Translations under genes and position numbers: made by a program
Notes under the pieces: generated by a model
Database searches by the model: none
Told to the model about the DNA's origin: nothing
The model's input: only the letters and a program-made list of their open reading frames with translations
NCBI GenBank assembly: GCA_002507175.1
Contig: DAZE01000005.1
Coordinates: 20,980-84,979 of the forward strand
Direction of reading: 5' to 3'
Length of the DNA stretch: 64,000 nt
DNA from: Euryarchaeota archaeon UBA558
Lineage (GTDB): Archaea > Thermoplasmatota > Poseidoniia > Poseidoniales > Thalassarchaeaceae
In this document: in pieces, positions 38,731 to 43,197 of the stretch
How the letters are laid out: the number at the start of each line of letters is the position of its first letter
Position numbering within the stretch: position 1 is the first letter of the stretch

Positions 38731-40245
38731 CGAACTATAACCGCTTATCTGATCTGCTATCCTCTCGATTTTCAGGGGGTTTGACTTGGGCAATACGGTC
38801 TTGGCAATGATGTGTCCAGCATTCCGGACCATGTGCCCCCCATCAAACGGTATCAACGGAATTAGGTTAGCCACCCCCAGAAGAAAACTAATCCACATTA
38901 TCCAGAACAAAAAATCAAACAGGCCCAAGATGACGTCTATTCCTAGCAGGGATGGAAGGATGCCGGTACCTGCCCCTAGGAAGGCCCTCTCTTCTAACAC
39001 CATCGTCTGACCCTGATTTTGGATTGGCACACCACTAAAGAGGAGGGGCGAAATTGCCGTTTGGACGAAGCGCTCACCAAAACTCAAATCCTCTGATATT
39101 GGAAGGCCATAGGCTCTAGCAGCAGAGTCTGCAGATCTTATGCCACTGACACCGAGAAACGCATCCCCTTCCTCTATCCCAGCTGCATCCACGTTGGATT
39201 CACATTGAGGATCTCCATCACACAATTGATAGTAGTATCTTTTCTTGTCAGTCAGTGTCACATCAACCTCTCTAAATACGACGTCGCCATGTATGGGATT
39301 CGAACTGACGAGCATGGTAACCAAATCCCCCGAATCGTGTTGGTTTAGGATTCCAGTTAGGTCGTCACCAGTCGCGATGGCAACTCCATCAATCTCAGAA
39401 ATCAACTCATACGGAAGAAGGCCGGCTTCATCCGCCCCTGAACCCTCAATTATCCCAACTGCGTACACGCCTTCTTGTTTCGCAGTTAATCCAGAGGAAA
39501 CCACTGCTAGAAGTATGACGACAAAATAAGTCATGACAATATTGACAGACGGCCCTGCCGCAAACATCCTCAACCGATCCCGTTGTGGAGCAATCCTCAT
39601 CTCTTCTTGGTCTGGCTCATAAAATGCCCCGACTGGAATGATCCCTGCCATCAGTATCCCAAAAGATCGAATCCTCATCCCATGAGCTCGTGCCATTAGG
39701 CCATGTCCATACTCGTGAACCACAACAGCTACGATCAGTGCAAGAATAGGCCAGAAAATTGGTACAAAGCTAGTCACCCCTGGGATGAACAAAATATCCG
39801 TCGCAGGTAGAACTTCTTGCTGGGCCGGCTCGATGGCTGTGCTTATTGCGCTTGCAGCTATTCCAAAAATTAAGAAGAGCATGACAGCAAAGCAAAGCCA
39901 AATTGAGGCCTCCCCAAAAATCCTCCAAAAACGTCTGGGACGTGCTATGAAATCGGCTGTTTTTTTTCCCTTGTTAGTCCTAATCATCAATATGATGCCT
40001 AGGATTCTCGTACAATTCCACCTTTCTAGATATCCGTTTCTATCTAGGAACAGAATTGAAATGTACCATAAAATAAGGAAGGCCCCAAGCGGAAGACTGA
40101 GCAAACCATTCACAGTCAGGAGCACAAGTCCTGCGATCATTAGGATCTGATTCAAGCCCAATGAGCCGTCATCCATAGTACGACCGATATGGCGGCCTGC
40201 TTCAAATGTCACTATTCCGAGAACACTAAGACCACCCCCCACCAC
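38677..40245 (-). CDS. Site-2 protease (M50 family zinc metalloprotease) with PDZ domain
   Basis: HEYGHGLMARAHG (HExxH in a TM helix) and the downstream LDGG-type motif (IPLIPFDGGHMV) are present. An internal PDZ-like region reads GIIEGSGADEAGL. It is 522 aa. Its 3' end overlaps the convergent signal peptidase gene by about 54 nt. Confidence 0.85.
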   Translation of the reverse strand: MVGGGLSVLGIVTFEAGRHIGRTMDDGSLGLNQILMIAGLVLLTVNGLLSLPLGAFLILWYISILFLDRNGYLERWNCTRILGIILMIRTNKGKKTADFIARPRRFWRIFGEASIWLCFAVMLFLIFGIAASAISTAIEPAQQEVLPATDILFIPGVTSFVPIFWPILALIVAVVVHEYGHGLMARAHGMRIRSFGILMAGIIPVGAFYEPDQEEMRIAPQRDRLRMFAAGPSVNIVMTYFVVILLAVVSSGLTAKQEGVYAVGIIEGSGADEAGLLPYELISEIDGVAIATGDDLTGILNQHDSGDLVTMLVSSNPIHGDVVFREVDVTLTDKKRYYYQLCDGDPQCESNVDAAGIEEGDAFLGVSGIRSADSAARAYGLPISEDLSFGERFVQTAISPLLFSGVPIQNQGQTMVLEERAFLGAGTGILPSLLGIDVILGLFDFLFWIMWISFLLGVANLIPLIPFDGGHMVRNAGHIIAKTVLPKSNPLKIERIADQISGYSSLFVLALVLVPILLPRFF

Positions 40246-40254
40246 AGGGGTGCA

Positions 40255-40419
40255 ATGGCATCGGACGTAAGCAGGGAAAGCCGGGCTGTTATCAGGGTGA
40301 AAAAAGAGTATGAGGCCATTGAAGCCCGTCTCGACCGTATTGATTTGGAGATATCAAAGCGTGAGATTGATGATATCCGAATTATATTGGACCGGATTGA
40401 TCGGGAACTCACGAAATAG
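40255..40419 (+). CDS. Small hypothetical coiled-coil protein (54 aa)
   Basis: The ATG at 40255 is divergent from the S2P start at 40245. The product is a heptad-like, charged peptide (EYEAIEARLDRIDLEISKREIDDIRIILDRIDRELTK). There is no other support, and it overlaps antisense ORFs. Confidence 0.25.
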   Translation: MASDVSRESRAVIRVKKEYEAIEARLDRIDLEISKREIDDIRIILDRIDRELTK

Positions 40420-40990
40420 TTGTGACAGATCCTCTCGAACCGTCTGACCTGCAAATCATGGCGATAAATCTGTGCAGTGGCATACCACTTTCCCAATCCA
40501 GGTGGGGGGCCCCATTCCTCGTGAGTGGTAAATTCGGAACCCTATTGGCGATTAATCGCATCTTTCCACTCAATCCGTCGACTGGAACGGATAGGATCCG
40601 CCAGCTATCCCCCCTAACTCCTTTCAGTCTGAATGCATACAGGGGTAATAGGCCGCAACGTTCGCCTGTTTCCTTGAAGGCTTCATACTGGGTCATTGTC
40701 CTTCCTGATAAGTAGATTTTACTTGTTTTTGATGATTTGACCTCTATTGGGAAGCAAACGTCCCCTCTCAAAACAAGAAGATCACCCGTGCCCTCTGATC
40801 CGCTACCGGGAGCTCTTACAACTAGAAAAGGTCGCTCACAAACTTGCATTGCCCGAGCCCTTTCTACCTCGTTACAGGACCTTGTTATCGCCAATACTCC
40901 TTTCCTTTCCCCAGCGAGGACGGATCTTAATTCACGCTCGTAGGGGCCGCTCATGACAACATAGCCTATCGGGTAGGCTAATGACGACAC
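40409..40990 (-). CDS. hjc: Holliday junction resolvase Hjc-type (archaeal) with C-terminal extension
   Basis: A PD-(D/E)xK nuclease core matches Hjc: ERELRSVLAGERKGVLAITRS…GSGSEGTGDLLVLRGDVCFPIEVKSSK. At 193 aa it exceeds the typical ~140, with an extra ~50-aa C-terminal region. Confidence 0.7.
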   Translation of the reverse strand: MSSLAYPIGYVVMSGPYERELRSVLAGERKGVLAITRSCNEVERARAMQVCERPFLVVRAPGSGSEGTGDLLVLRGDVCFPIEVKSSKTSKIYLSGRTMTQYEAFKETGERCGLLPLYAFRLKGVRGDSWRILSVPVDGLSGKMRLIANRVPNLPLTRNGAPHLDWESGMPLHRFIAMICRSDGSRGSVTTIS

Positions 40991-41062
40991 CGGTGCGATT
41001 CACTAGAAACTAGCGATTAGCATTCAAAACAACCATCACGAAGGCCCAAACAGCAGTAAGAC

Positions 41063-41851
41063 TTGAACACCGGCTGCCACCAATGTTCTACAATGGACAT
41101 AGCTGGAGTCAAGACTCATGACTACCAACTCGCATACAGATTGATTCAAGCATTACGTGCCACAGGCATCAGGCCAGTTCAACTGAGTCCCGACGATCCA
41201 GTCCCAGCCTCGATGCCAATTTGGTTCGGAACACCCTCAGAGGTGGAATCTATGCGGGATCCACGGGGTGTTGGATGCACTATTGAGAATCTCGATGCGG
41301 CCATAACAGCCGCAATATTGGGGACATCCAAATCAATAAATCACATAATATTTGGAGTAGATCCTGGACCCAGGCCAGGGCTAGCATGGATATCAAGAAG
41401 CCAGTTATTGGGGTCCATGCAACTTGAATCAGTCGATGAGACTGTCAACATGATTGATTCTATCCTCTCTGATCTGAGGCCAATTAGCTACATCATTAGA
41501 ATAGGCGATGGATCTAAAACAATCTCCTGTAGACTCGTCAACGTCTGTCTGGCCAGAGGACATATTGTAGAGGTTGTAGACGAGAGGCGTACATCAATGG
41601 GATCACGCCACAGCCACGCCGCATCTGCAGCTAGAATAGCACAGAAAAAAGGAAAGCAGGTGGTAAACAAAATACAATTGGATCCTTCTAAGGGCGAAAT
41701 AAAGGAAATTCAAAGAAGGTCTAGGTCTACATCGGGAGGGAGGGTTACCATCCCAAAGTCTCTCGCAAAGGCAGTTGCAGTCGGTCGAATGGATATTCAC
41801 GAAGCAGTGCAGAGACACGGGAACCTAGGAGAGTTCAAGCACGTGAGTTAA
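41063..41851 (+). CDS. Hypothetical protein with an RNase H-like (RuvC/YqgF-type) motif and a C-terminal AbrB/SpoVT-like motif
   Basis: A central IIFGVDPGPRPGLAWI resembles the hh(G/L)(I/V)DPG…G(h)A first beta-strand/Asp motif of RuvC/YqgF-family RNase H-fold nucleases. The basic C-terminus carries GGRVTIPKSLAKAVAV, resembling the RVxIPKE swapped-hairpin (AbrB/MazE) DNA-binding motif. Both assignments rest on motifs only. Confidence 0.4.
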   Translation: MNTGCHQCSTMDIAGVKTHDYQLAYRLIQALRATGIRPVQLSPDDPVPASMPIWFGTPSEVESMRDPRGVGCTIENLDAAITAAILGTSKSINHIIFGVDPGPRPGLAWISRSQLLGSMQLESVDETVNMIDSILSDLRPISYIIRIGDGSKTISCRLVNVCLARGHIVEVVDERRTSMGSRHSHAASAARIAQKKGKQVVNKIQLDPSKGEIKEIQRRSRSTSGGRVTIPKSLAKAVAVGRMDIHEAVQRHGNLGEFKHVS

Positions 41852-42489
41852 TCGATCAATCCTCTTCGATACTCTCTCGTCCGGTCCACGCCAGGAAACC
41901 TGTCTTCCGATTCCCTGTAAACAGTTTTCATATTGTTCACAAAATTCGTTTCCTGAGTAATTATCTTCACTTTCTCCACACCGGGGTCGACCCCAGAGTC
42001 CATCCAAGCGAGAACAATTTCCATTGTCATCCTGGCACCTTCGCGATGTGGGTATGCGAAGATGTCCATACTCAGTGGGGGCAATACAATTGTTCCCCTG
42101 TTCTCTATCTCCCCGATTCTGTCGAAGAGAGAGGCATATGCAGCCTTCAACAACTCCCTTCTGTCATTGTCTTGGGTGGGTCGTCGACAATCAGGTCCAA
42201 CTACGTGAATTAAGCTGCTGTGAGGTAGTGAGAATGGAGGAGTAATTACCGCCTCGCCGACACCACAAGGGGGGAGATTCTCTTTCCGCCTCTCAACGGC
42301 TATTCCATGGGTGTGTTTCCTTAGTTCTGGGCCCGCAGCCTGATGGACGACCTCATCTACACCTTCCCTCCCTGCAAGCCGATTGTTCGCAGGAGTGACG
42401 AGAATATCCCCCTCTTCTTTTGTAAGGTCCCCGTACATGAATCGAACCTGGCCAAATTGGCATTCTCTCACGATGATAGTCTCGGCCAC
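41848..42489 (-). CDS. Macro-domain protein (ADP-ribose binding / O-acetyl-ADP-ribose deacetylase-like)
   Basis: The macro-domain signature is present: DILVTPANNRLAGREGVDEVVHQAAGPEL (NxxLxxGGGVxxAIxxAAG) plus downstream AVITPPF/HVVGP segments. It is 213 aa. Confidence 0.75.
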   Translation of the reverse strand: MAETIIVRECQFGQVRFMYGDLTKEEGDILVTPANNRLAGREGVDEVVHQAAGPELRKHTHGIAVERRKENLPPCGVGEAVITPPFSLPHSSLIHVVGPDCRRPTQDNDRRELLKAAYASLFDRIGEIENRGTIVLPPLSMDIFAYPHREGARMTMEIVLAWMDSGVDPGVEKVKIITQETNFVNNMKTVYRESEDRFPGVDRTREYRRGLID

Positions 42490-42580
42490 AACCGTTCGGA
42501 CAAGCCCCGACGTATATCCTCATCGACTGAATGAGCCCTTTTACGAAGCCTTCATGACTCTGAACGTCGCATCACCCATC

Positions 42581-42814
42581 ATGGCGGCGGGCTTTGTGCT
42601 GATCAATGTAGAACCGGGATCCGAAATCAGGATTCAACAAGAGGCTGAGAAATTTGATTTTGTATCGGAGGCCAATGTCCTGTTCGGGGATCATGATTTG
42701 ATAGTAAAAGTTGAAGCTGGCTCTGTAGGAGACATCGCTAGGTTAGTAGTTGAGAAACTTAGGTCAATCGATGGGGTCACCACCACCAAAACACTTGCTT
42801 GTGCAGAACTGTGA
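42581..42814 (+). CDS. Stand-alone Lrp/AsnC C-terminal (RAM) ligand-binding domain protein
   Basis: It is 77 aa from ATG 42581: MAAGFVLINVEPGSEIRIQQEAEKFDFVSEANVLFGDHDLIVKVEAGSVGDIARLVVEKLRSIDGVTTTKTLA. This matches the RAM-domain consensus (hhhVkvepg…yLvtGeyDhhhkVeA.s.e.l…h.ekIr.ipGV..T.T). The longer six-frame ORF from 42383 would overlap the macro-domain gene start and is rejected. Confidence 0.6.
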   Translation: MAAGFVLINVEPGSEIRIQQEAEKFDFVSEANVLFGDHDLIVKVEAGSVGDIARLVVEKLRSIDGVTTTKTLACAEL

Positions 42815-42886
42815 GGGATATTTTCCTCTCAGAAAACTCGTTTTAGACCAACTCAGCGCCGCAGTCTATCGAAATCGGGGAAACGG

Positions 42887-42896
42887 ATATATATAG
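42887..42896 (+). promoter_or_regulatory. TATA-box-like element (ATATATATAG) with purine-rich BRE-like upstream sequence, upstream of MC1
   Basis: The sequence reads ggggaaacggATATATATAGaac, lying 35-44 nt upstream of ATG 42931. An SD ggaggt sits at 42917-42922. The geometry fits an archaeal promoter with a short leader. Confidence 0.5.
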
Positions 42897-42930
42897 AACA
42901 GTATTGTAGGGGACTCGGAGGTATTGTACT

Positions 42931-43197
42931 ATGAGTGATAAAAAGTACTTCGTTTTGCTAAATAGCGATGGAACAGATTCGGACCACGTGTTCGTTTCGA
43001 AGCAACCAAGGGGTGCCGCCTTGAAGGCAGCAACCCGCGGTCACACCAGCATTGAGCTGAGGGAGAGGGGGACCAACAGAGTCCACTGTTTCACAGGCTC
43101 AGTCACAATGGTGGACAGACCAGCTTCTGGACCTGCATGGCTTCCTGCGAAGATAAAGAAGGCCAACGTCAAGAAGTCGGGTATAAAGCGCCTCTAA
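42931..43197 (+). CDS. Chromosomal protein MC1 (archaeal non-histone chromatin protein)
   Basis: The 88-aa basic protein MSDKKYFVLLNSDGTDSDHVFVSKQPRGAALKAATRGHTSIELRERGTNRVHCFTGSVTMVDRPASGPAWLPAKIKKANVKKSGIKRL aligns along its length to the MC1 family (FVL…GVFTGKQPRQAALKAANRG…LRERGTKKVHIF…WMP.KI.K..VKK). An SD ggaggt lies at 42917-42922 and a TATA-like ATATATATAG lies upstream. Confidence 0.8.
   Translation: MSDKKYFVLLNSDGTDSDHVFVSKQPRGAALKAATRGHTSIELRERGTNRVHCFTGSVTMVDRPASGPAWLPAKIKKANVKKSGIKRL

Follow-up and report, generated by a model that had tools for sequence, protein, structure and literature searches.

What does the gene encode that stands head-to-head with a Holliday junction resolvase gene in a genome of the Poseidoniales, and what could its product do there? 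The gene lies in a 64,000-nucleotide stretch (the window; positions are counted from its first letter) of contig DAZE01000005.1 from Euryarchaeota archaeon UBA558. In the list of open reading frames (ORFs) of the window it appears at 41063..41851 on the forward strand, with a TTG start and 262 amino acids (aa). It contains IIFGVDPGPRPGLAWI, where GVDPGPRPG occupies nucleotides (nt) 41354-41380, and GGRVTIPKSLAKAVAV, where RVTIPK occupies nt 41741-41758. From these two motifs a sequence-only reading had proposed an orphan protein that pairs a RuvC/YqgF-type nuclease motif with an AbrB/SpoVT-like DNA-binding motif. The ORF and both motifs are as described there; its start most likely lies further downstream, at ATG 41093 rather than TTG 41063, because the N-termini of close homologs read MDIAGV, MDKAGV or MEAAGV, and the protein would then have 252 aa. 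Residue numbers throughout follow the 262-aa numbering (from TTG 41063). Comparison with homologs showed that the gene belongs to a large unnamed archaeal family of ~250-aa, three-domain proteins, referred to below as the family.

41093..41851, forward strand: predicted coding sequence of the family member, 252 aa plus stop (homolog N-termini)

A large family behind an apparent orphan

The first protein search returned 157 matches; no Pfam domain and no informative name was attached to any of them, and one bore the name of a Thalassarchaeaceae metagenome-assembled genome (MAG). With a profile built from 26 Poseidoniales sequences and searched against 1.84 billion representatives at 50% identity, 694 proteins were retrieved at E ≤ 1e-3 and 392 at E ≤ 1e-10, nearly all of them ~250 aa in length; the named sources include Thermoplasmata, Methanomassiliicoccales, Altiarchaeales and Hydrothermarchaeales. 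With this number of relatives the orphan label was not borne out. When the Haloferax marisrubri member served as the query, 1843 clusters were found at E ≤ 1e-10, none with a Pfam domain, and all names among the matches listed read "hypothetical" or "uncharacterized", one evidently misassigned JGI name excepted.

Furthermore, a degenerate DNA pattern for G-[IV]-D-P-G-x-R-P-G-h-A was scanned over one genome per GTDB species, giving at least 120 loci. Among the 120 loci listed, 99 encode a family member (local hmmsearch, E 1e-25 to 1e-92); these comprise 38 loci of Halobacteria and 23 of Poseidoniales, together with Methanocellales and many Thermoplasmatota. The Halobacteria among the loci listed include cultured Haloferax, Halogeometricum, Halococcus, Natrinema, Natronomonas, Halobellus and others.

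No Pfam or NCBIfam model covers the family: the window protein had no match in Pfam, NCBIfam and PDB sequence searches, an NCBIfam scan of 40 members gave nothing coherent, and the N-terminal extensions of longer homologs contained no Pfam domain. Two matches are unusual in origin or make-up. One (P0202, 278 aa) joins family residues 41-174 to the central cysteine-rich domain of DnaJ and is probably an assembly or gene-calling chimera, since dnaJ is a frequent neighbour of the family gene. The other comes from a "Proteobacteria bacterium" MAG (L025), probably a misbinned archaeal contig.

A predicted RNase H-like core with conserved acidic residues

An AlphaFold2 model of the protein was built on the 26-sequence alignment (predicted local distance difference test, pLDDT, 83.3; predicted template modelling score, pTM, 0.63). 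The predicted parts and the motifs of the core are as follows.

41099..41320, forward strand: N-terminal small alpha/beta domain, residues 13-86, beta-alpha-beta-beta-alpha-beta-alpha (AlphaFold)
41336..41650, forward strand: RNase H-like (RuvC/YqgF-type) core, residues 92-196 (AlphaFold, Foldseek, sub-threshold Pfam matches in relatives)
41354..41380, forward strand: GVDPGPRPG motif at the end of strand b1, with D100 as the predicted first catalytic carboxylate (conservation)
41576..41596, forward strand: VDERRTS motif at the end of strand b5, with E174 (matches YqgF "DER-x-T-T/S")
41615..41617, forward strand: H185 at the N-terminus of helix a3, predicted last catalytic residue (conservation)
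41684..41839, forward strand: basic three-helix module, residues 208-259 (AlphaFold secondary structure)

The elements of the core follow one another as b1 (94-100), b2 (106-111), b3 (114-120), a1 (124-138), b4 (142-148), a2 (152-164), b5 (169-172) and a3 (185-194). This order, b1-b2-b3-a1-b4-a2-b5-a3, is the RNase H-like topology, with pLDDT mostly 82-94 over residues 94-194, and the mixed five-stranded sheet that marks the superfamily was found both in the AlphaFold order and by Foldseek. Against the PDB, Foldseek ranked the RuvC-like domain of the IS621/ISCro4 recombinases first (E 1.8e-4 to 1e-3; probability 1.00 for IS621), and also matched Thermus thermophilus RuvC (4ep5, E 5.5e-4, target template modelling (TM) score 0.46, probability 1.00) and RuvX (7ess, E 1.4e-3, target TM score 0.48, probability 1.00); the list continues with retroviral integrases. 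In a viral library, the matches were phage RuvC-like resolvases and terminase nuclease domains. The sequence-only reading had proposed a RuvC/YqgF-type nuclease fold from a short motif, with structure prediction as a check; the RNase H-like topology duly appeared in the AlphaFold model, and Foldseek, sub-threshold Pfam matches in relatives and invariant acidic residues agree with it.

Conservation was counted over 151 family sequences. D100 is present in 151/151; wherever the column of position 174 is occupied, the residue is E (E174), and G98, G102, G106, G148, G150, T177, A189 and I192 are invariant or nearly so. Since G98, D100, G102, G106, E174 and T177 are all (nearly) invariant, the motifs exceed chance. 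At position 185, 99 sequences have D, 41 have H (all Poseidoniales included) and 7 have N, so that D or H occurs in 140 of 147; D predominates in the family at large, with H in Poseidoniales and some Thermoplasmata. Most sequences carry D or E at position 125, and D173 is usually present. Conserved carboxylates were thus found on b1, on a1, after b5 and in the C-terminal helix, the positions expected of the RNase H-like superfamily. As placed by the model, D100, D/E125, (D173)-E174 and D/H185 would occupy the sites of the metal ligands in the RuvC/YqgF fold.

Resemblance to known families was also visible at the sequence level, at low scores. DUF460 (PF04312) was matched below threshold by 26 of 40 distant members (best E 3.2e-5; 13-20 bits against a gathering score of 28), a score that no member scanned reached; 1 of 26 Poseidoniales members matched it at E 0.13, and the window protein gave no match. 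RuvX (PF03652) was matched by 4 of 40 relatives (E ≥ 0.014, 16 bits), missing the gathering score of 29.2, again with no match for the window protein. Two of 40 relatives had sub-threshold matches to Tex_YqgF (PF16921). The member P0267 came close to the Tex_YqgF cut-off of 27 bits with a score of 26.0 (E 1.3e-5; positions 2-95 of the 126 in the profile), and 5 of 8 members matched phrog_1770, "Holliday junction resolvase", below threshold. A PDB profile search gave weak matches to the RuvC-I motif of IscB (E ~0.7-1.5), to which GVDPGPRPG aligns weakly. In hhalign, with a single-sequence template and 3% probability, E. coli YqgF was aligned in register over helix a1, strand b4, helix a2 and the b5 "DER", its "lhDERlST" being set against VDERRTS. 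The family consensus at b5/a3, VDExxTTxxxxxxDxxAAxxIA, resembles the C-terminal motif of YqgF.

The N-terminal domain modelled alone reached a pLDDT of 92. Foldseek on this domain brought up no specific neighbour, the matches being to generic Rossmann-like folds such as pre-ATP-grasp, receiver and BRCT, with E 0.016 at best. T18, D20, P48 and E/D60 are near-invariant across the 151 sequences; the acidic residues, at two strand ends, could mark a partner interface or a further site for metal or phosphate.

A basic C-terminal module, modelled as helices

Residues 197-262, the C-terminal third, add up to a net charge of +7, and S220-R221 (in "IQRxSR"), A235, V238 and G241 are invariant in the 151 sequences. 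It is in this part that the sequence-only reading had seen a swapped hairpin of the AbrB/SpoVT/MazE type, at RVTIPK. In the AlphaFold model RVTIPK forms a loop and the start of a helix, and residues 224-231 contain no beta-hairpin. Positions 226-229 are variable in haloarchaea (D/G/T, N/D/G, an untabulated position, and T/A/E). The hhalign comparison with E. coli MazE had a probability of 0.3% and aligned an unrelated stretch, with nothing at RVTIPK. Neither the ~45-residue, beta-hairpin-rich AbrB fold nor a PF04014/MazE sequence match was found for the protein, the match of 1 of 40 members to MazE_antitoxin being weak (E 0.075). Hence the swapped-hairpin assignment was rejected on the three helices, the negative MazE alignment and the loss of the motif in haloarchaea; the small number of residues that follow RVTIPK also rules against an AbrB fold. 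The end of the module, G-E-L-S/T-x-E-E-A, is weakly SHOCT-like, which says little on function.

Recombination genes stand head-to-head with the family gene in Poseidoniales, Halobacteria and Methanocella

40409..40954, reverse strand: Hjc-like PD-(D/E)XK resolvase gene, head-to-head partner of the family gene (PF01870)

The product of this neighbour matches PF01870 with 44.6 bits (cut-off 21.1, E 1.4e-11) and the NCBIfam Hjc equivalog NF040854 with 35.6 bits, below its cut-off of 70; because it passes the former and misses the latter, we call it Hjc-like and longer than canonical Hjc. The divergent Hjc-type gene named by the sequence-only reading is therefore real, and the conservation of the pair, which that reading had suggested examining, depends on the lineage. 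The counts given here cover the non-redundant loci gathered, which for many lineages are loci among those listed by the pattern scan. The Poseidoniales loci have the hjc-like gene next to the family gene, upstream and divergent within 400 nt, in 28 of 29 cases, with 73-200 nt between the aligned regions except at one locus (298 nt). Outside the Poseidoniales it is adjacent in 1 of 83 loci (L122, from another thermoplasmatote). The hjc pairing is thus specific to Poseidoniales.

In the Halobacteria (38 loci in all), the corresponding place is taken by radB: of the 32 loci with enough upstream flank, 23 have it divergent within 400 nt, and it lies nearby in 27 loci. The closest single-protein PDB match of its product is Thermococcus RadB (2cvf, E 3e-34, full length). 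The same divergent, head-to-head radB was found in Methanocella (L046), and in two archaeal MAGs (L058, L118) radB lies 0.9-2 kb upstream of the family gene. Because radB stands head-to-head in Halobacteria and Methanocella independently of hjc, the link to recombination is strengthened by this second pairing. Conserved "unknown" ORFs upstream of the family gene in Halobacteria (L042, L067, L095, L105, L130, L132) were discarded as alternative-frame artefacts over radB, typical of six-frame calling in high-GC genomes.

Downstream in Halobacteria, a convergent LarC/DUF111 gene was found in 25 loci and cdc48, on the same strand at 1.2-3 kb, in 18 of 29, so that the cluster reads radB (divergent), family gene, larC/DUF111 (convergent), cdc48a (e.g. 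L100:4573-5316 on the reverse strand, L135, L042). Among the other Thermoplasmatota, 17 of 45 loci have dnaJ upstream on the same strand, and in 10 of 34 the next gene downstream, again on the same strand, is cdc48; neither larC nor radB belongs to this arrangement. cdc48 is accordingly the neighbour common to Halobacteria and other Thermoplasmatota, whereas in Poseidoniales it does not adjoin the family gene. No rRNA, tRNA or ribosome-biogenesis gene was recurrent beside the family gene in the loci compared, and a PADLOC search gave no match.

The cluster order points to a probable Haloferax volcanii ortholog. In this species radB is HVO_2383 (PMC7776575), HVO_2380 is Cdc48a and HVO_2381 is the DUF111 "Cdc48a-neighbor" (PMC10470531 supplements). 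Because the Haloferax order of radB, family gene, larC/DUF111 and cdc48 matches HVO_2383-2380, we infer by synteny that the ortholog is HVO_2382. The latter was used as an "uncharacterized protein of interest" in PMC10470531, a 2023 study whose supplementary Table S2 lists it merely as "uncharacterized, predicted RNase H-like" and which reports for it only synteny with Cdc48, no function. No functional study of the family was found in the literature. The family is a distinct, un-modelled one of the RuvC/YqgF kind, mentioned earlier in one supplementary table, as uncharacterized.

A candidate nuclease of recombination and repair

From the predicted fold, the acidic residues and the gene context, we propose, with a probability of roughly 0.5, that the family protein is a metal-dependent, structure-specific nuclease tied to recombination and repair. 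The RNase H-like core would cleave structured nucleic acid endonucleolytically by a two-metal-ion mechanism dependent on Mg2+ or Mn2+. The basic C-terminal helices would hold the substrate, and the N-terminal domain and C-terminal module may supply substrate and/or partner binding. Likely substrates would be branched or hybrid intermediates such as D-loops, flaps, junctions and R-loops. The protein might be co-expressed with hjc or radB from the short divergent intergenic region and act alongside the homologous-recombination and repair machinery, with a functional tie to Cdc48. Nor does the proposal require the protein to be a canonical Holliday junction resolvase.

Several points weigh against this proposal. 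Gene neighbourhood is indirect evidence, and a conserved pairing could in each case go back to one ancestral event and have been retained by synteny. Beyond the Poseidoniales, Halobacteria and Methanocella, the family gene is accompanied by dnaK-operon genes and cdc48 rather than by recombination genes. Of the relatives characterised in the YqgF clade, most are linked to RNA (E. coli YqgF acts in 16S rRNA maturation; Tex and Spt6 are further examples). H. volcanii Hjc and Hef have been described as alternative, redundant resolvases (PMC7776575), and the title of Lestini et al. (2010), as given in the reference list of PMC5480776, calls the Hjc and Hef pathways jointly essential for viability; a third, fully redundant Holliday junction resolvase is disfavoured by what these sources state.

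The strongest competitor, which we consider less probable and on the unlikely side, is an RNA-processing nuclease like YqgF/RuvX that acts on rRNA or tRNA precursors or on the RNA of RNA:DNA hybrids, with the hjc and radB adjacency reflecting shared regulation or synteny. The closest sequence families are YqgF/RuvX, Tex_YqgF and DUF460, and the family is housekeeping-like, single copy and widely conserved; its neighbours in many Thermoplasmatota (dnaJ, cdc48) belong to proteostasis, not DNA repair. Majorek et al. (2014) assigned the archaea-only DUF460 to RNase H-like clade D, with RuvX, Tex and Spt6 as neighbours, and Haloferax Cdc48a was reported to associate with a RecJ3/4-aRNase J nuclease complex for RNA and single-stranded DNA (PMC10470531). 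However, two different recombination genes stand head-to-head with the family gene in two distant lineages, which is unlikely by chance, and the recurrent rRNA, tRNA or ribosome-biogenesis neighbours that an RNA function would suggest are missing from the loci compared.

A protein that binds nucleic acid or serves as an adaptor without catalysis appears quite improbable. It would fit the same-strand downstream cdc48 shared by Halobacteria and other Thermoplasmatota (also in Table S2 of PMC10470531), the variation of position 185 among D, H and N, a position 125 that is not strictly acidic, and the basic, strongly conserved C-terminal module. Yet D100 and E174 never vary among the 151 sequences, which come from distant lineages, and 140 of 147 have D or H at position 185, a pattern typical of active RuvC/YqgF enzymes and normally lost in scaffolds. 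Much less credible still is the full model of the sequence-only reading, in which a nuclease fused to an AbrB/SpoVT swapped hairpin acts as a second Holliday junction resolvase co-regulated with Hjc: its RNase H-like core and the Poseidoniales hjc pairing are real and 1 of 40 members has the weak MazE_antitoxin match, but the helical C-terminus, the negative hhalign comparison with MazE, the variable RVTIPK of haloarchaea and the Hjc/Hef redundancy, so far as the sources cited go, all speak against it. Finally, an IS110-type (bridge-RNA) recombinase, domesticated or active, or another mobile-element protein can be practically dismissed, since the first-ranked Foldseek match to IS621/ISCro4 is limited to the RuvC-like part (rmsd, root-mean-square deviation, ~14 Å over 170-190 columns), no Pfam IS110 transposase domain is present, the protein has ~250 aa against the 305-319 residues of the chains matched, and the gene is single copy (without a paralog in the window) in a fixed syntenic position, with normal G+C content and no flanking or terminal repeats.

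A bolder version of the proposal can be put forward, though we hold it rather doubtful: the family would belong to the core of homologous recombination in Euryarchaeota without having been recognised as such. Its members, as RuvC/YqgF-type nucleases, would act together with RadB and/or Hjc on recombination intermediates such as D-loops, reversed forks and R-loops, and Cdc48 might hand them over or remove them. The lack of a Pfam model and the annotation as "hypothetical" everywhere would explain why the family was overlooked. The gaps in archaeal homologous recombination to which it speaks are the exact role of RadB and the nucleases for branched intermediates besides Hjc and Hef. The family offers a concrete candidate, apparently catalytically competent as judged from its residues, beside radB in the tractable Haloferax and beside hjc in the abundant uncultured marine group II archaea. 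Defining it would also give a name to several thousand "hypothetical proteins".

Organization of the locus in the window

40955..41092, no strand: divergent intergenic region between the hjc-like gene and the family gene (DNA alignment with relatives)
41848..42489, reverse strand: macro-domain gene, convergent with the family gene (PF01661, E 4.7e-21)

For the hjc-like gene, ATG 40954 is the most likely start, since the ortholog at L016 is called at 181 aa; the gene may extend to GTG 40990. Poseidoniales Hjc-like proteins of 181-207 aa exceed canonical Hjc, and one (L003:3970-4809, reverse strand) has 279 aa with a proline/serine-rich tail. With the hjc-like gene starting at ATG 40954 and the family gene at ATG 41093, the region between them is ~138 nt long (40955-41092; 136-137 nt in relatives). 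The divergent arrangement described in the sequence-only reading stands, and its 70 nt became ~138 nt after the start corrections.

The alignment with close relatives revealed two conserved nucleotide blocks in this region, at ~40963-40994, with the inverted repeat TAGCCTA-TCGGG-TAGGCTA, and at ~41056-41076; both terminate in ACACCGG, ~83 nt apart. The blocks are nearly identical among the window, L016:3865-4000 and L017:414-550, where the proteins are 66-76% identical. Alternatively, the first block could encode additional N-terminal residues of Hjc, read from GTG 40990, a codon that is in frame in the window, L016 and L017 alike. Only close relatives of the window share the motif, and more distant Poseidoniales lack it, so the CACCGG repeat was dropped as a Poseidoniales-wide motif. 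Rfam and terminator scans of the locus gave no match and no terminator.

On the other side, the macro-domain gene reported at the 3' end was found as described: it is convergent, its stop overlaps that of the family gene by 4 nt (41848-41851), and the arrangement recurs in L001, L005, L016 and L017. After the macro-domain gene, positions 42383-43197 hold a gene with an AsnC/Lrp ligand-binding domain and an MC1 chromatin-protein gene, and the block of macro, AsnC, MC1, sdhB and sdhA is syntenic in L001, L016 and L017. Between an M50 protease gene and the 3' end of hjc lies a small ORF (40189-40419, forward strand, 76 aa) with no Pfam match; counterparts occupy the same position in L001 (70 aa), L005/L006 (84 or 70 aa) and L016 (68 aa).

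Relation to known RNase H-like families

We conclude that the family is a separate one within the RuvC/YqgF clade, nearest to DUF460 and YqgF and by Pfam criteria in neither. DUF460 (PF04312/COG2433) is likewise archaeal, shares the "GIDPG" first-strand motif and is the most frequent, though sub-threshold, Pfam match of family members. These matches reach only profile positions ~7-72 of 135, and the ~250-aa family proteins have N- and C-terminal modules of their own. DUF460 proteins are themselves long enough that Majorek et al. suspected extra domains.

With YqgF/RuvX and Tex/Spt6 the family shares the fold, GxDxGxxxxGxA on b1, DE(R)xT(T/S) after b5 and D..AA..I in the last helix. RuvX (PF03652), however, is a bacterial single domain of ~140 aa, whereas the family is archaeal, with 252 aa and two extra domains (N-terminal alpha/beta and C-terminal helical), and its Poseidoniales members differ from YqgF/RuvX/Tex in having H in place of the last D. 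RuvC and the phage RuvC-like resolvases differ from the family in architecture and show no significant sequence match with it, but they have the same RNase H-like topology, with acidic residues at equivalent secondary-structure positions, and gene context links RuvC and the family alike to recombination genes.

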